NCBI GenBank assembly: GCA_000091205.1 | Contig: AP006499.2 | Direction: 5' to 3' (one strand) | DNA: 64,000 nucleotides | DNA from: Cyanidioschyzon merolae | Lineage: Eukaryota | Shown: piece by piece, positions 1,240 through 41,346 of the stretch | Position numbering within the stretch: the first letter of the stretch is position 1 | How the letters are laid out: each line of letters opens with the position of its first letter | Notes under the pieces: model-generated | The model's database searches: none | Told to the model about the DNA's origin: nothing | What the model saw: the letters and a program-made list of their open reading frames with translations, nothing else | Made by a program: the position numbers and the translations under genes

Positions 1240-2525
1240 TTCGTTGATTTAAAAAAACAAGTTCGATGATTCGTGCGAGTAGGTCCCTTACCTTGTTGAA
1301 CGTGAACCCTTCAACCCGTTAGACCGACAAATAACGTCTTGCCTGTGGTGCGCGCCGCGCGATGGACACGAACAACACACAACGCTGAGCAGGCACGCGT
1401 GCGCAGCGACGGTGCTGTCTGCTGTGTGCTTACATGGACACGCGTACCGTTTCTGCGCAGCGCTGATTGACGAACATGCATCCGACGCTGCGCGTCAATC
1501 GAGCGTATCGACTTGAGGGGCGTGTCCGTTTCGGGAGGCGGTGCGCGCATCCAGGCATCGCCTGTCGCGGCAACATGGCGACGCGCGGGTGCCGCCTCTA
1601 CGCCACGTGGCGCAATTCCAGTGCGGTGTCGATGTTTTTACTTGACAGAACTTCTGCACAGGCCAGCGTTCTCCGACTGTGCGCTTCTTACCAGCGCGCG
1701 GTGAAGCATCCATCCATCCCCAACTTTCAAGTTCCATCACCCATACTTGTTGTCAGATATACTGGTCGTTTCATACGCTCGATCGTGTGCCGAGCCTGCC
1801 GAGAGCGTCCGCAACAGCGCTATAGCGCCGGTGCGGATGCATCACGGAGAGAGAACGGCGTTGCCGTACCACAGACGGCGTCGGCTCGAGGCGTGTTTTA
1901 TACGACATGGACTCGGGATTCACCATCATTCTAGGAGCAGGCAAGCTGTGCAGACAGACCTATTGCCTGCGACGGCGCGAAGCGATGTAGTAGGAGTCCA
2001 CCGCGACGCGGGCGACGCCCAGACGCAGCATCCCCGCCCCAAGTCCGAGAATAAACTACGTTGTGGACGAGTTGCTCAGGTCTCTTCGCAGCACTGGGCA
2101 CTGTGAAGAGCGAATAGCTATGGTCTGGTAGCCTCGTCCGGATCTGGGGGCCTTCCGCCTAGAAACTAAACTTTCGACAATTCGGAAACCTTTCCCCCCT
2201 TTTTAACGTTTACCGGAGAGTGGGAACGGAATTGTTATCGAGTTGCTAGTTAGAAGTTCATTTCCGTTCTTTATTCCCATCAGTGCATGACGCCATTCGA
2301 TGCCTTGACGTGCGCTGATGCCATCGCATGCGGCGAACTCTGTGAATAGCGATCATCCTAGACCTCTCGATTTTCTTGAACTCAATACCGGCCAGATGTG
2401 CGGCTGGAAACGAAATTCGATACAAGGGACGTTGCAGATAAACATAGCCCGGGGCGCTCATGCGTCCTTAAACGTATACCATCCTGTTGTTCATCCGGAA
2501 ACTGAATCCTACAGCGATACCCAGT

Positions 2526-32944: not shown

Positions 32945-33474
32945 CATACGCGGTCGATGCATGTCGCCGCTGATGTTCCAGCTACATCTTCATCGTGTAG
33001 CTGAGGGCAAATCTTGTACTCCATAAAGCGAAGGGGTATCGAGCTCGCCCTAGACTTGTTTTATGTGGACCGAGAACAGCACGGCCACGTACAAGTTGTG
33101 TCTGTTGGCAGCGTGCCGCAGCAGCGTACGACGCTGCCTGGCCATTTTTTGCATCGCTGGACGAGTTCCGCGGCTGGGTAGCTGACGGCCTCCGTTCCTA
33201 TTGCGGCCGCAGGAAACAGCGAACACGCCTATGCCGCGAATAGCATTGCTTCGCGGATTTCGTGGTCGACACGGTGATTCAGCGTATTGCTTAACTAGGA
33301 ACAGATGACTCGTTGAACTGCAAGCGCTCGAATGCTGAACATGTAGAGACGGTTGCCTGTGCAAGCTGCCTGATCTAGTGTGCAACCACGAGCAGTACGC
33401 ATTAGGCGGTTTGAGTCGGTGTTCCGGACCTACAATATCGGTTGCTGTCAGCTGCACTGAGAACACGCTTCCAA

Positions 33475-33832
33475 CTGCATCCTTACATGATCAGAGGATG
33501 CTGGCGATAGAGCGCTTGCGATTGTGCATGCTTCCCGCCAAATGTGCTGCACGCATCGATCCAACAGACAGCACATACGCCGAACGCTTCCAACTGCATC
33601 CTTACATGATCAGAGGATGCTGGCGATAGAGCGCTTGCGATTGTGCATGCTTCCCGCCAAATGTGCTGCACGCATCGATCCAACAGACAGCACATACGCC
33701 GAACGCTTCCAACTGCATCCTTACATGATCAGAGGATGCTGGCGATAGAGCGCTTGCGATTGTGCATGCTTCCCGCCAAATGTGCTGCACGCATCGATCC
33801 AACAGACAGCACATACGCCGAAAGCGCTGCGT
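33475..33832. repeat. tandem repeat, 3 copies of a 119-bp unit
   Basis: ctgcatccttacatgatcagaggatgctggcgatagagcgcttgcgattgtgcatgcttcccgccaaatgtgctgcacgcatcgatccaacagacagcacatacgccgaacgcttccaa repeats almost perfectly, starting at 33475, 33594 and 33713. It lies just 3' of the helicase stop codon, between two convergent genes. Confidence 0.95.
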
Positions 33833-37276: not shown

Positions 37277-37699
37277 CCAAGCGAAACGCCCCGCTCGAGG
37301 ACAGACGTATACGTCCGTCTGAGCGCTGCATGCTGAATGGCGCCAAGTCACTGCACTGCGACTGGTATCGGTACCCTGGGGCCTTGCAAGCACCCTGGTG
37401 CTGAGTTTGAAGGCTTGTTTTCGGGGCTTTTATAGCAAAGGAACATGCTATGGGAAATGTGACGATCGTCCATAGAATAGTTTGGGAGCGTTCTCTTTCA
37501 GTCGGGAAACTGCTGGCGTCTTCCCGCACCCGTGTGTGCGGTGAGTGGACCGCTGGTGGCGCTTTGTAGACGTCGCTACGCCTATGCGAGGGCGTTTCGG
37601 GGTGACTCGAGGATCGCTTCTCTTCGACGCGTTTTCCTCATGGAGCAGAGGCATGGTAATGTGTCCGTTTTTAAGGTTCAGCGCACCGTTGGAAAGACA

Positions 37700-39376
37700 T
37701 CACCAGCACCACCACCGCCTATCACACGGACGATGCCGCCCGTGTACAGTAGTGGCGAGAAACCCGCCCTGGACAAAACGTCTCCAACCGAGGTGCAGAC
37801 GTCTCCTAGTCCTTTTGGACCGGCCATCTACTACTGCTTCCAACGTTGTCTCATATAGTTCGACTTTGAGAGGTTGTCCCAAAAAATTCTCTCTTGTCGA
37901 CTCTGGAGGTCTCGTCTCCAGCACCGCACATTTCCTTGTATTGATTGCGGCGTTAAAGTCTCGGTTCACGAATTCCATACGTTTCTCCCCGTTGGTAGTT
38001 GTGCTTACTAGTGCGCCTAGTCCTCGAACTTTCGCCCTCCTTTCCGTTTGCTCCTCCGTCAGCGCTCCGTACTTTTTTATATCCTCAGGGGTCCGTTGGC
38101 ACTTTTCCATCTCCACGCTCTGAAGTGTACACCCCAGTTCATGGTGTGTATGCAATGCTCGGAACTCATCTACAGGTATTGTAACAAAACACCTCGCGCA
38201 CTCCTTGGATGTTCTTGTCGTTGGAGCTGGCGTAGTTCCTTTTTGTATCTTCCGGCGCCCTGCTCCATATGCCACTACGAGCCTCTGATTTTCATCCTCT
38301 TTCAGGGCACTCAACTCATTGAAAAAGTCCGCGAACGCCCGCTGCCTCCCACCGTACAGATTCATCCGCAAACGAGCCCGCCGGGGCTTGGTATACTCCT
38401 CCCACAGCGCATCCCAATGGGCAACACGAACTTCCATGAATTTCCGAAAAGCTTCAAAGTCGGCTCTTCGGCTGGTCACCTCGCTCAAAGCCTCCAGGTG
38501 ATCCTTCATTCCTGCGTTCCACTTCTCAGTTTTCTTCCTCGCATTCATCATTCCCGATTCTCGACAGTATCTCGCTCTCGAGAACCTCAAAAGACGCATG
38601 TCTTTCTGACGGAAGTTGCCGTCAGCACCATCTTCCGCACGCTTCGGTGCTGCGATGGTGATGATATTTGTGTTTCGGGGGTCCGCGCCAACGACAAGGT
38701 CGTTATCCTGCACTTTCTGCGTCTCAAGACTCGCCTCCTTCTTTTCTTCATGCTTCATCGCGTCAACGACAAGCACGTTATCCTGCACTTTCTGCGTCGC
38801 ATGTTCCGCCTCCTTCTCATCTTCATACTTCGTCACGCCAACGACAAGGTCGTTATCCTCCATCTCCTGCATCGCAGGATCCCCCTCTTTGTTTTCTTCA
38901 TCCTTCGTCACGGGCGCAGCCGAGGGCCGAACTGGACGATCTTTCTTCAACCGCCGATAGTGTATACACAAGGCTACTCCATCGGTTTCGATCAACCCAG
39001 TGAACCACTTTTGCTCGCTCACTCTCAGACGTTTGAAATTGAAGATATTCTTCCAGTACGTCTCCCGGTTTTCGCCGGTGAAGTCCTCCCTGCTAACATT
39101 GAACTCCGGACTGATCTCCTTCATGATGCCGTAGAGGACGCCGGAATCGATAGTCACGAAATGTGACTTGATATTGCACATTGGAACGATGTTGAAGCGC
39201 TTCCCCATTAGGAAAGCCTTCCGTCTCTCCCACTCTTCATTTTTGTCCTCACTTAGCTCCACCTCTGCCTTGCGTTCGAGTTCTCGGTCCAGAAACACAA
39301 AATAGCGCAGGATGAGGCGATAGTATCTTTCCTTATCTTTTTTATCTCTGATATCTTGTCTGCTGGATTCGCCCAC
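37700..39376 (-). CDS. TnpB/Fanzor-family (OMEGA) RNA-guided endonuclease-like ORF; likely an incomplete gene model missing spliced N-terminal exons
   Basis: C-terminal region has a zinc-ribbon, [38 protein letters not shown], followed about 40 aa later by [20 protein letters not shown]. The latter is the RuvC-III RDxNAAxNI signature of IS605/IS607 TnpB and eukaryotic Fanzor, encoded at 37939-37965. Upstream, [17 protein letters not shown] matches the RuvC-I G-x-D-P-G/R strand, and [20 protein letters not shown] resembles a WED/REC strand. The annotated start codon is GTG, not ATG. Upstream minus-strand ORFs in other frames (39253-39633, 39618-39812, 39870-40181) could be further exons. The last 50-60 codons are probably read-through into host sequence. 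Confidence 0.6.
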
Positions 39377-40480
39377 CCGAGTACCGCACGGTGCTCTTGT
39401 ATAACCGCACGGATTACAGAAGCTTCATTCGTGCTGCCGTTTGATATCCTCATGTCCACAAATTCGACCTCATCTTCATATCTGCGATCGTTCGTGATGC
39501 CATTGATAATCGCCCATATCCCCTTGCAAGAGATACCCCCGTACAGCGCAAACACGGCGCGTATCATGAAACGTTCGAGGTTCATTGTCAAAAGGTTCTT
39601 CAGGTTCGTGATATACTTCATCGCTCCGTACATGTAAATACCCCGGTCACCCTTGTATCGAGTACCCTCGAACCCGTAAAAGGGATGTCGTTCGTGGAGC
39701 GCGTGAACCCGCCCATTTTACCCCGCGTTTCCTCTGCACCAAACACCAGGTGCCGAATAAAGGTCTTGTCAAAGAACTCGTCTGGAATCTCGACTGTTTC
39801 CACGTGCGCCACGTCTTCTTACATCTCGCGCACCAAATTCATCAGTCTTGACGACACCTTTATAATACTCTAGGAGTACAGATCGACATGCTGTCTGATG
39901 TCGTCTTGCAACTTTTGCTCATCCGAATCCTCGAGGTGTCCATGAGGGCGGGTTACCACTACCGTCCCGTCATAGTCTCGTGTTTCGTGCAGCTTCTGAC
40001 GCCGGGCCTCCCCTTTTGCTTCCGTGTCTTTTCCTGTTCCTCTGCACTTGGCAGTGTTTCTCTTTTTTTTCTGGCAGCCGGCGACACTGCGCCTCCAGGA
40101 TCCTTCATTTCTATGTCCATAACTTTCCTTTGCTATGTTTTTGAAAAAGAACGCATTTTGAACGCTTCCGTTATAAACCACGTAAAATCACTTGAATACA
40201 CTCATGTGAAGATTGAAACACAATTGAATTTAAAGATTATATTATGCTACGACTTGAACGCAAATACAACTTGTGCGTTAGAGCAATACGCTATTGATAA
40301 GGATCGCGTTTCCCTTCAACGGCGAGGTACGCGTCGTATCTCATACCTGCCTGATCTGAAAGTGGGCTTATCGACTGCGCTATTGAAAAAAAGAACAGAG
40401 ACTAGCCCCTATATAGCAACGAAATAACATTTTCTTCTCCCTTCAACGATAAACGTTAAAAGGCGGGAAAGGTTTCCATT
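37860..40480 (-). mobile_element. candidate Fanzor-bearing insertion: lower-GC island of about 2.6 kb between the helicase and transporter genes (ends not defined)
   Basis: Base composition drops visibly between about 37860 and 40480 compared with the flanks: AT-rich runs, a poly-T at about 40060 and no host-like GC-rich ORFs. The island contains the TnpB/Fanzor-like ORF. No terminal inverted repeats and no second transposase were found. The boundaries are from composition only. Confidence 0.3.
38687..38911 (-). repeat. in-frame triplication of a 75-bp (25-codon) unit inside the Fanzor-like ORF
   Basis: Three head-to-tail units: gccaacgacaaggtcgttatcctgcactttctgcgtc..., gtcaacgacaagcacgttatcctgcactttctgcgtc... 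and gccaacgacaaggtcgttatcctccatctcctgcatc.... They encode [50 protein letters not shown] and [25 protein letters not shown]. The last copy runs directly into the RuvC-I motif ADPRNT. Confidence 0.9.
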
Positions 40481-41346
40481 TTGTCGAAACTTTACCTTCT
40501 TGGCGGAAGATCTCGCGAGCCGGACGAGTATGCCTGGCGGGTGCTTCATGCTCCCGCACTAGCGGGTGCCGTAGTGAGATCTTGGCAGCTCGTCCGAAAC
40601 CCAATTTTTATTGGAATAGGACTAGAAGTGGACAGCTCTCATCCAAGTGTCGCCTTGGTCGCAGTGATCGCTTATAGTGACCCTTTGCGCGGCCGCACGC
40701 AGAAGCTCTGTCTGCGATAATTGCTGGCTCCCAGATTGATAACGAAACCTGATCCCGTGTCGCGCAAACCACGCCTCTAGTCGACGCCCCCAGTGGTATG
40801 GCAAAACCTTTCTGTCCCCGTGATGCATCCACACAAGCGGTTTAGGCGCTGTAGCGGGTGCTCAGCGCCGGCACTCGGCACACAATAGATCGTAAAAAAA
40901 CTACCCGTACATCCGAGAGACATTATAAATAATGGAACATGGGAGTAGGGTTCTCCAGCATGATGAACGCTCTCTCGATTACCAGTACCCATCCATCCCG
41001 CGATTTTAGATCCACGGTCAACGAAAACGTCTTGTGAGCGGAGAGCGGAGCGCCGCGCGGTACGCGCTCCACCGCGCGCCCGTTGATGATCGCGAGCGCG
41101 CCGGTGCGCCGCGCACTGCACCAACGACCGCACAATGCTCACGTCCGCGTTGGATTGTCTGGGTGTTTGTTTTCTTTGCAGTGACGAGGAGGCATACGGG
41201 TTTGCGCTTACAAGTCTAGCGCTCACCGCAAGCACTGGTGGCTGCGTGAGGGCGCAGACGAAATCGGGTGGTTTTTTACCGACAGAAGCGCATTTGATCG
41301 GGGCTGGAACGCTGCGCTGCTTGCGTGTGCTCGTGCCGCTCGTACG

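Follow-up and report, generated by a model that had tools for sequence, protein, structure and literature searches.

Fanzors have a rearranged RuvC domain with the glutamate at a relocated RuvC-II position: the residue at the canonical position is inert, and a conserved glutamate lies some 35-45 residues downstream, before a [TS][TS]/finger region (PMC10530073, PMC10711439). A Fanzor family has been described in the genome of Cyanidioschyzon merolae and placed under Fanzor1; its element, CMe-1A, is present in about 150 copies of about 3 kb that are about 80% identical to their consensus, some of them intact, has no inverted terminal repeats, and shares its 5' 635 bp with TE-N2_CMe (Bao and Jurka, 2013, Mob DNA 4:12, PMC3627910). 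With the cataloguing of Fanzor1 in C. merolae in 2013 and Fanzor biochemistry in 2023-2024, the element treated here is already known, and the copy described below is a fossil. Its use is that of a positive control, in that reading of the raw sequence found a Fanzor missed by the models of Pfam and NCBIfam, which indicates that RuvC nucleases can be picked up from their motifs even when highly diverged.

The closest systems of known structure and biochemistry are the Fanzor1 RNA-guided endonucleases SpuFz1, PpFz, and GtFz1 (PDB 8GKH, 9CEU-9CEZ, 9CF0/1, 9CER), which match the C. merolae lineage over the full-length predicted fold (Foldseek E down to 1e-16, TM 0.6-0.7) and share with it a RuvC-I motif of the DPG type, a RuvC-II glutamate at the relocated position, an RD-type RuvC-III motif, a basic N-terminus predicted to be disordered, and a gene carried on a transposon that occurs in multiple copies and has a conserved 3' end. 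However, sequence identity to these proteins is only 12-17%, the C. merolae lineage has a 75-bp coding minisatellite before RuvC-I, and Spu-1 elements end in 30-nt inverted repeats, whereas CMe-1A has none. Prokaryotic TnpB of the IS200/IS605 and IS607 type (ISDra2 TnpB, PDB 8H1J) and Cas12f have the RuvC core and the general OMEGA logic in common with the C. merolae element, but they match far less well in structure (E 5e-3 to 1e-2), and the element differs from them by a larger REC domain, the relocated glutamate, the lack of TnpA, and its eukaryotic host. Fanzor2 (ApmFz2, PDB 9B0L), likewise a eukaryotic/viral TnpB homologue with a rearranged RuvC, gives a weak fold match (E = 4e-3, 284 aligned columns), and the C. 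merolae family was put under Fanzor1 by Bao and Jurka (PMC3627910).

Extent and Genomic Setting of the Element

The DNA analyzed here is a 64,000-nucleotide stretch of the C. merolae genome (the window), in which a Fanzor-like element had been predicted from the letters of the sequence. Five neighboring ORFs of the window are identical to BAM82140, 82142, 82143, 82144, and 82148 of C. merolae 10D, whereas the 558-aa ORF of the element has no exact entry in the protein collection. The neighbors of the element are a DEAD_2/Helicase_C_2 helicase and an MFS glycerol-3-phosphate transporter (BAM82148.1), in agreement with the predicted insertion between a helicase and a sugar-phosphate transporter gene. 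The region is also the low-GC island that had been noticed, with a GC content of 0.42-0.53 over about 37750-40750 compared to 0.55-0.62 in the flanking genes. The island had been put at about 2.6 kb; the repeat unit proved larger, reaching about 570 bp further out on the 5' side:

37709..41051, minus strand: whole CMe-1A-type Fanzor1 element copy, about 3.34 kb, delimited by homology with 12 paralogous copies; no inverted terminal repeats

In alignments to these 12 copies, homology begins near 41037-41045 and stops near 37709-37742, and column identity in the paralogue alignment is 0.6-0.9 within the element vs. 0.3-0.45 beyond it. At least 12 paralogous copies, 58-85% identical, occur in related metagenome contigs. 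Identity of the window copy to a crude consensus is 81.6% over the 5' 2.2 kb and 89.9% over the 3' 1 kb. As had been noted before, the element has neither terminal inverted repeats (none found, with three relatives checked) nor a partner transposase: there is no TnpA and no second ORF with homologues in 37709-41051.

The element, which had been left without a family and called possibly unclassified, fits CMe-1A/TE-N2_CMe (Bao and Jurka, 2013, PMC3627910) in species, length, divergence between copies, lack of terminal inverted repeats, and 5' module, the match being to the published description of the family. Common to both are the host species, a length of about 3 kb, the absence of inverted terminal repeats and of a transposase, a single Fanzor1 ORF, and a separable 5' module; the window copy is a frameshifted pseudogene whereas some copies in the paper are intact, and nothing contradicts membership. 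The region between the helicase and glycerol-3-phosphate transporter genes of C. merolae 10D is thus very probably one decayed copy of CMe-1A.

Identity of the Encoded Protein

The largest open frame of the element was found where it had been predicted, on the minus strand with a GTG start:

37700..39376, minus strand: 558-aa ORF, the C-terminal two thirds of the protein (part of REC, WED, RuvC, and TNB-like region) plus a 22-codon read-through tail

Homologues of this ORF at E<=1e-3 number 95, a second and more diverse homologue set was also found, the profile search reached 7170 cluster representatives, and 28 related metagenome loci were recovered; with this many homologues the feature is not a product of chance. 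Neither the ORF nor seven relatives had a significant match in Pfam (including Cas12f1-like_TNB and OrfB_Zn_ribbon) or NCBIfam, so that the profile match over the RuvC and zinc-ribbon segment that had been anticipated did not appear. Precomputed Pfam labels on the relatives amount to a weak DUF8286 (PF26935) alone. Searches of the PDB with phmmer (the ORF and the relatives P0093 and P0076) gave nothing significant, and a 10-sequence profile gave 0 matches; SpuFz1 was the top match of the single-sequence PDB search, with a non-significant E of 0.15. Since sequence and profile searches gave nothing significant, Fanzor identity rests on structure prediction and motifs.

The AlphaFold2 model of the 702-aa relative P0076 (pLDDT 86.4, pTM 0.84) matches PpFz at 1.9e-16, SpuFz1 at about 1e-16 to 1e-15 (2.4e-16), and GtFz at 1e-13 in Foldseek, with Cas12o/i/f at 1e-5 or weaker; its TM scores to Fanzor1 structures are 0.58-0.70, and 0.68-0.70 for SpuFz1 when target-normalized. 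The model of the window ORF has a mean pLDDT of 72, with values >85 over most of residues 220-500 and low confidence in residues 148-209, the minisatellite. Its best matches are SpuFz1 (2e-10), PpFz (1e-8), and GtFz (8e-6). For both models the solved Fanzor1 structures rank above Cas12, TnpB, and Fanzor2, as expected for a Fanzor-type TnpB-like nuclease gene, and the RNase-H-like RuvC core on which the prediction depended is present in the predicted fold and matches the solved Fanzor1 structures. Judged by these models, the 37700-39376 ORF is the remnant of a Fanzor1-type TnpB-like gene in a transposable element.

Catalytic Residues, Finger Region, and N-Terminus

The RuvC positions, numbered in the 558-aa ORF and all on the minus strand, are:

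38675..38683, minus strand: RuvC-I, D232-P233-R234, with the Asp kept and the invariant Gly of DPG changed to Arg
38264-38266, minus strand: G371 in VVAYGAG, the canonical RuvC-II position, G in 43/43 relatives
38165..38167, minus strand: E404 in PVDEFR, the relocated RuvC-II glutamate, E in 43/43 relatives
37958..37960, minus strand: D473 in NRDFNAA, the RuvC-III aspartate, D in 43/43 relatives

The RuvC-I columns of the relatives hold D in 43/44, P in 41/44, and G in 44/44, and the RuvC-III RD motif holds R in 41/43 and D in 43/43; D232 and D473 are 241 residues apart. Conservation and the RuvC core of the predicted fold bear out the earlier assignment of the GADP and NRDFN segments to RuvC-I and RuvC-III, whereas E315, proposed as a guess for RuvC-II, gives way to E404. 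The glutamates of a WEEY motif were also considered for RuvC-II and dropped for E404 on the basis of the conserved column and the published Fanzor arrangement (PMC10530073, PMC10711439). The TS/TT that follows this glutamate is changed to AL in the window copy. Neither the TnpA partner nor the canonical RuvC-II glutamate that mark IS200/IS605/IS607 TnpB is found here, the canonical position being Gly.

The C4 zinc finger that Fanzor1 proteins carry between RuvC-II and RuvC-III is absent, and the CCCC zinc finger in the NUC/TNB of SpuFz1 has no counterpart: a CxxC pair is missing from the finger segment of 43/44 aligned clade members and of the window ORF, and PF07282 (OrfB_Zn_ribbon) scores 12-16 bits, under its cut-off of 26.3. 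The Cys/His zinc ribbon of the original prediction therefore falls away, and with it the CARC thought to be part of it, as the family consensus reads CARRF and the second Cys is a copy-specific R396C substitution. The Lys-rich peptide resembling a nuclear localization signal is indeed encoded in ORF 39870-40181 but not in the frame of the protein, whose actual N-terminus, MDIEMKDPGGAVSPAARKKRETLPSAEEQEKTRKQKGRPG, is likewise basic. The relatives have a Lys/Arg-rich N-terminus that is modeled as disordered (residues 1-41, pLDDT <50), and the window retains ...ARKKRET...EKTRKQKGR... in a separate frame as a putative nuclear localization signal.

Decay of the Coding Region

The coding remnant, its lesions, and its minisatellite are as follows:

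37769..40120, minus strand: Fanzor1 coding remnant in four reading-frame segments, from the ATG at 40118-40120 to the ancestral stop position
40017 (approximate), minus strand: frameshift 1, a 1-nt deletion, from alignment to the near-intact L002 copy and the tblastn frame change
39870-39872, minus strand: in-frame premature stop, where ORF 39870-40181 ends and homology to P0003 runs on in that frame
39722 (approximate), minus strand: frameshift 2, a 1-nt deletion, same evidence as frameshift 1
39343 (approximate), minus strand: frameshift 3, a 1-nt deletion, same evidence
38686..38912, minus strand: coding minisatellite of three 75-bp (25-aa) units just upstream of RuvC-I, found with TRF
37769..37771, minus strand: lost ancestral stop with read-through to 37700, from the aligned 3' ends of 13 copies

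The relatives P0003, P0081, and P0076 give collinear tblastn matches in frames 1, 3, 2, and 1 with contiguous junctions, and the upstream ORFs in other frames that had been predicted exist (39253-39633, 39618-39812, and 39870-40181). The consensus ORF starts with MKKQVDDPGG... and ends with ...WRRFV*; its stop codon is TAG in most copies and has become CAG in the window copy. Eight highly conserved positions are substituted in the window copy, including the DPG to DPR change (G234R); this and G304R, W333R, R396C, and others affect near-invariant positions of the ORF. The minisatellite has five units at the orthologous locus L004 and is absent from distant relatives. P0003 is uninterrupted in L002, and a fully intact coding copy was found in 0 of the 12 paralogous copies. 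The window copy is a pseudogene that cannot make the Fanzor1 protein, which upholds the earlier suspicion that the enzyme may be inactive.

The orthologous contig L001 aligns across the element without gaps, and hence both copies share the frameshifts; since this independent metagenome contig has the same deletions, assembly errors are an unlikely cause. The ORF part of the element differs from L001 by 1.37%, compared to 0.22-0.40% for three host coding sequences and 0.6-1.3% for intergenic DNA, and the orthologous ORF product P0001 is 98% identical to the window ORF at the protein level. Differences from the consensus are more frequent at third codon positions (0.162) than at second positions (0.080), indicating that much of the divergence arose while the lineage was under selection. 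The copy is a fixed molecular fossil, common to at least two strains and drifting at the intergenic rate. A point against this reading is the length, for a fossil, of an open frame that spans 558 codons and retains the three catalytic residues.

Candidate ωRNA and Terminal Motifs

The non-coding parts of the element comprise a 5' module, two terminal motifs, and the region of a candidate ωRNA:

40390..41051, minus strand: 5' non-coding module of about 660 bp, the TE-N2_CMe equivalent, from column identity, a solo copy, and absence from some copies
41016..41051, minus strand: 5' terminal motif, family consensus GTTTTTTTCTTTTCGATGACAAAACGTTTACATTGACC, degenerate in the window copy
37709..37731, minus strand: 3' terminal motif, family consensus GTTTTTCTTTTGAA[AC]G[AG]CGTTTG, degenerate in the window copy
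37709..37880, minus strand: candidate ωRNA scaffold, the ORF 3' end plus a conserved non-coding tail of about 60 nt

Column identity in the 5' module is only about 0.6-0.7. A solo module, 79% identical to consensus positions 101-658, lies at about 1632-2276 of the window, and the copies L002, L011, L015, and L026 are without it. A gapped test is no more than suggestive of a direct repeat formed by the 5' and 3' terminal motifs (local alignment score of 12, p = 0.0012 by shuffling); an ungapped repeat finder did not pick this repeat up.

Conservation extends about 40-60 nt beyond the ancestral stop and then falls, and this conserved 3' tail is plausibly an ωRNA scaffold. In the RNAalifold structure of a trimmed alignment, 86.7% of cells are paired vs. 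33-58% with slid partners, and four pairs are changed on both sides; the covariation is modest and comes largely from the lineage L010/L024. The whole 3' alignment yields a weak consensus of -14 kcal/mol with no covariation term. The fold z-score of the window sequence is -3.27 and that of the consensus -0.52, no better than shuffles. Rfam has nothing relevant in 37300-41300. The flank below 37709 would supply the putative guide.

Proposed Activity and Alternative Explanations

An intact element would begin with the 5' module (about 0.65 kb) and continue with a short leader rich in A/T, a single gene without introns, and the conserved 3' tail. Its Fanzor1 protein of about 750-800 aa would combine REC and WED domains with a RuvC domain that has its glutamate at the relocated Fanzor position; the N-terminus would be basic and disordered, and the TNB-like region would be without the usual zinc ligands. 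By analogy with SpuFz1 and GtFz1, such an element may give rise to an ωRNA that is transcribed from the end of the ORF (3') together with the element's right end, with the guide continuing into the flanking DNA, and the protein-RNA complex would cut DNA that has a transposon-adjacent motif followed by a guide-matched sequence. Cleavage would presumably aid the persistence or spread of the element. In the window copy, the N-terminal third of this protein is broken by the three 1-nt deletions and the premature stop.

Cyanidioschyzon merolae has very few introns, which counts against the idea that introns divide the N-terminal exons of a Fanzor gene that is still functional. The N-terminal part that the ORF lacks is indeed encoded upstream, by the segments in other frames, and Fanzor genes of other eukaryotes have acquired introns (PMC10530073), but the homologous segments abut within 0-6 nt, leaving no space for an intron, and each junction corresponds to a one-base deletion relative to L002. 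The in-frame stop at 39870-39872, the uninterrupted P0003 in L002, the mutated invariant residues, and the neutral rate of divergence add to this, and introns in the coding region were rejected and a functional spliced gene judged highly improbable. The original prediction had left the split N-terminus to introns or frameshifts: the frameshifts hold, with an in-frame stop besides, and the introns do not, the segments being contiguous in the DNA. Barely more credible is a retained, possibly domesticated RuvC protein made from the truncated ORF (558 aa, or 502 aa from the first ATG), for which speak the 558 codons that are open in both strains, the retention of D232, E404, and D473, and the confidently modeled RuvC core. 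The first ATG of that ORF is at residue 57, however, so that the product would have neither the N-terminal REC domain nor a nuclear localization signal, the near-invariant positions listed above are substituted, the ancestral stop codon is lost, and fully intact copies are absent among the 12 paralogues. The strains further differ by 20 of 1677 nt at 98% protein identity (about 11 of 558 residues), and changes between them are thus mostly non-synonymous.

The least probable origin is a prokaryotic TnpB/IS605 insertion through contamination or recent horizontal transfer. The RuvC fold is common to TnpB and Cas12f, but the element sits between host genes of a finished C. merolae chromosome, with synteny kept in a second strain, full-length Fanzor1 structures are its best matches while ISDra2 TnpB reaches only E = 5e-3, no TnpA is present, and many diverged copies of the family occur in the same lineage; synteny and fold ranking refute this origin. 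A dead protein gene whose 3' end still yields an ωRNA, loaded in trans by intact CMe-1A Fanzors, is compatible with the decayed CMe-1A copy that we favor, and is unlikely, although clearly less so than the readings above. In its favor are the 3' tail conserved past the stop codon, the predicted structure mostly kept in the window copy (z = -3.27), and the report of intact CMe-1A copies (Bao and Jurka, 2013, PMC3627910); against it stand the modest covariation from largely one lineage, the consensus that folds no better than shuffles, and the degeneration of the terminal 23 nt in the window copy.

A broader proposal, tentative and likewise unlikely, is that the CMe-1A lineage and the large metagenomic clade around it form a Fanzor1 variant without TNB zinc ligands, residing in an element of separable modules (TE-N2 plus Fanzor core) whose borders are marked not by inverted repeats but by a T-rich motif of about 25 nt that resembles a direct repeat, with dead copies perhaps giving ωRNAs in trans. 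Such a zinc-less modular Fanzor1 element, if real, would hint at a site-specific or recombination-based movement undescribed for Fanzor elements. Its host being a thermoacidophile, intact members from C. merolae could, if the proposal is true, be heat-tolerant editors.

As the transposition mechanism of CMe-1A is unclassified, three features may be of interest to specialists: the clade without the zinc-finger cysteines, the separable modules, and the similar end motifs in direct orientation.

Identity of the Encoded Protein

The reading of the raw sequence correctly recognised a Fanzor element, but the family is a known one, already described in the C. merolae genome itself, and the copy in the window is, judged by its sequence, a pseudogene. 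The minus-strand ORF on which that reading was based exists (558 aa, GTG start), as do its two RuvC-type motif peptides, 241 residues apart, and the upstream ORFs in other frames. The noted island of lower GC content is also found (0.42-0.53 over ~37750-40750 vs. 0.55-0.62 in the flanking genes). It is bordered by a transporter gene and, on the other flank, by a DEAD_2/Helicase_C_2 helicase gene.

Features of the element and its surroundings (window positions)
37700-39376 (-): Fanzor-type ORF (window ORF)
39253-39633, 39618-39812, 39870-40181: upstream ORFs in other frames
39870-39872 (-): in-frame stop, ending an ORF while homology continues
37709-37731 and 41016-41051: T-rich terminal motif, direct orientation; also at the 3' ends of metagenome loci L005, L007, L010 and L024
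41347-43611: glycerol-3-phosphate transporter BAM82148, exact protein match

Five neighbouring ORFs are exact C. merolae 10D proteins (BAM82140, 82142, 82143, 82144, and BAM82148; 1,232,258-bp chromosome); since these are in the protein collection and the exact sequence of the window ORF is missing from it, the latter is apparently unannotated. Between the ABC1-kinase and helicase genes, the intergenic DNA holds a perfect 119-bp tandem repeat of three units (33465-33822, 100% matches), which is found in the orthologous contig of another strain (L001) too.

Pfam and NCBIfam gave nothing significant for the window ORF or seven relatives; the Cas12f1-like_TNB (OrfB_Zn_ribbon) model reached only 12-16 bits vs. 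a cut-off of 26.3. Sequence and profile searches of the PDB likewise returned no significant match, SpuFz1 being top for the window ORF at E = 0.15. By sequence similarity the homologues form a large family: the ORF itself had 95 hits, a profile of distant members gave a more diverse set, and an exhaustive search reached 7170 cluster representatives at E<=1e-3, full-length relatives being 600-750 aa long. Decisive for the Fanzor assignment are the predicted structures, in which the RNase-H-like RuvC core is present, and the assignment therefore stands. The model of the relative P0076 (702 aa, 37% identity to the window ORF over 87% of that ORF; pLDDT 86.4, pTM 0.84) has as its best PDB matches the three solved Fanzor1 proteins over their full length, namely PpFz (E 1.9e-16), SpuFz1 (E 2.4e-16 to 1e-15, TM 0.60-0.70), and GtFz (1.2e-13), followed by Cas12o, Cas12i, and Cas12f at 3e-5 or worse. 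The model of the window ORF (mean pLDDT 72, >85 for most of residues 220-500) likewise ranks the Fanzor1 structures first (SpuFz1 2e-10, PpFz 1e-8, GtFz 8e-6), with Cas12o, Fanzor2, Cas12p, and ISDra2 TnpB below them in that order.

Catalytic Residues and Zinc Finger

In an alignment of 45 sequences, D232 (GADP), E404 (PVDEFR), and D473 (NRDFN) occupy invariant or near-invariant columns, and the canonical RuvC-II position of the window ORF holds a glycine (VVAYG371AG). Fanzors have replaced the canonical RuvC-II glutamate by Gly or Pro and use instead a conserved glutamate further downstream, directly ahead of the finger region (PMC10530073, PMC10711439); the triad of SpuFz1 is D383/E541/D606 (PMC10432273, PMC11423790). 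Because E404 fits this known relocation, the original prediction was right to suspect a rearranged RuvC site and wrong in its guess of E315. The proposed Cys/His zinc ribbon did not hold up either: CxxC is absent between E404 and D473 in the window ORF and in 43 of 44 relatives. SpuFz1 has kept a CCCC finger that this clade has apparently lost. 'CARC' stems from the copy-specific substitution R396C. A single CxxC in the finger segment (aligned to residues 400-478) is kept only by P0135, the most distant member of the clade.

Extent of the Element and Match to CMe-1A

One metagenome scan yielded 28 loci. Five loci (L003, L004, L009, and L017 from the scan, L001 separately) are orthologous, stem from closely related strains, and are 98-99.8% identical, L001 aligning ungapped; the remaining loci collapse to ~12 independent paralogous copies. 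Paralogue homology spans ~41037-41045 to ~37709-37742, and column identity is 0.85-0.9 in the coding part, 0.6-0.7 in the 5' 650 bp, and ~0.3-0.45 outside; because of these limits, the element is given a length of ~3.34 kb (37709-41051) instead of the ~2.6 kb first proposed. In line with what was originally noted, neither a second gene within 37709-41051 nor terminal inverted repeats were found.

The family had been left undetermined and possibly unclassified, but in length, ends, and 5' module the element fits the published description of CMe-1A, a ~3-kb repeat classed under Fanzor1 with ~150 copies in C. merolae, each ~80% identical to the consensus, which lacks inverted terminal repeats, whose target-site duplication the authors left undetermined, and whose first 635 bp at the 5' end share 95% identity with a separate repeat, TE-N2_CMe (Bao and Jurka, 2013, PMC3627910). 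Against a crude consensus made here, the window copy is 81.6% identical over the 5' 2.2 kb and 89.9% over the 3' 1 kb.

The 5' module is missing in four copies. In two of them, an inverted fragment of the module adjoins the Fanzor core head-to-head (L011, 969-1271; L015, 177-492), which suggests either two mobile modules, TE-N2 and the core, that can be separated, or repeated rearrangement of the region. A solo, TE-N2_CMe-like 5' module (~640 bp) lies at ~1632-2276 (+); it shares 79% identity with consensus positions 101-658 and 67% with the module inside the element (40387-40950). Ahead of RuvC-I there is a 75-bp coding minisatellite (25-aa units; 38686-38912), with three units in the window and L001, five at the orthologous locus in L004/L009 (L004 4471-4840), and none in distant relatives.

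Decay of the Window Copy

Matches to intact relatives pass through frames 1, 3, 2, and 1 with contiguous junctions, and alignment to the near-intact copy in locus L002 places 1-base deletions at ~40017, ~39722, and ~39343. Of the introns or frameshifts suggested to split the N-terminus, the frameshifts are therefore retained and the introns rejected. In its correct frame, this DNA gives the N-terminus MDIEMKDPGGAVSPAARKKRETLPSAEEQEKTRKQKGRPG (ORF 39959-40120); the supposed Lys-rich, NLS-like peptide results from reading it in a wrong one. Where most copies have the ancestral stop codon TAG (consensus ...WRRFV*), the window copy has CAG (37769-37771) and reads through for another 22 residues. 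Of ~68 highly conserved positions, 8 carry substitutions (G234R in DPG, Y271C, G304R, W333R, K344R, R396C, L454G, and I480T). No fully intact copy is among the 12 paralogues retrieved; the longest related ORF recovered, P0003 (752 aa, L002 6001-8259), is shortened by a CAA-to-TAA change 37 codons ahead of the consensus stop.

Compared with L001, whose protein is 98% identical to the window ORF, 1.37% of sites differ in the ORF part and 0.98% in the 5' module, vs. 0.6-1.3% in intergenic DNA and only 0.22-0.40% in three flanking host coding sequences. This divergence, near intergenic and above host coding levels, indicates that the window copy drifts neutrally. Third codon positions still hold an excess of the differences from the consensus, which fits selection at an earlier stage of the family, as argued by Bao and Jurka (2013, PMC3627910). 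Within the element, differences from L001 form tight clusters of 6-8 substitutions (38515-38529, 39245-39266, and 39887-39912), a pattern suggestive of gene conversion with other copies as donors.

The 3' End and Terminal Motifs

Characterised Fanzor1 systems transcribe the right end of the transposon, together with the ORF's 3' end, into ωRNA and read the guide from the flank of the element (PMC10432273, PMC10530073). By analogy, the 3' end of this element would be the ωRNA source and its flank the guide, DNA cleavage, a TAM, and any role in transposition being hypothetical here. Beyond the ancestral stop, the sequence stays conserved for another ~40-60 nt but no further. RNAalifold predicts a long-range helix (CAGUAGU/ACUACUG) around three hairpins, with four pairs changed on both sides. 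The region 37709-37880 is put forward only as a candidate ωRNA scaffold, since covariation comes mostly from one lineage, the paired fraction (86.7% vs. 33-58% in slid controls) refers to a structure derived from these same sequences, the fold z-score of -3.27 for the window's 176 nt falls to -0.52 for the consensus, and Rfam has no match for the region.

The family-consensus ends are alike in direct orientation (5' GTTTTTTTCTTTTCGATGACAAAACGTTT, 3' GTTTTTCTTTTGAAAGACGTTTG; gapped alignment score 12, shuffle p = 0.0012, internal windows being nearly as good), and their T-rich motif may represent a terminal direct repeat or a site-specific target, or may be a chance resemblance. Among the fetched loci, the exact 12-mer TTTTCTTTTGAA occurs only at 3' ends.
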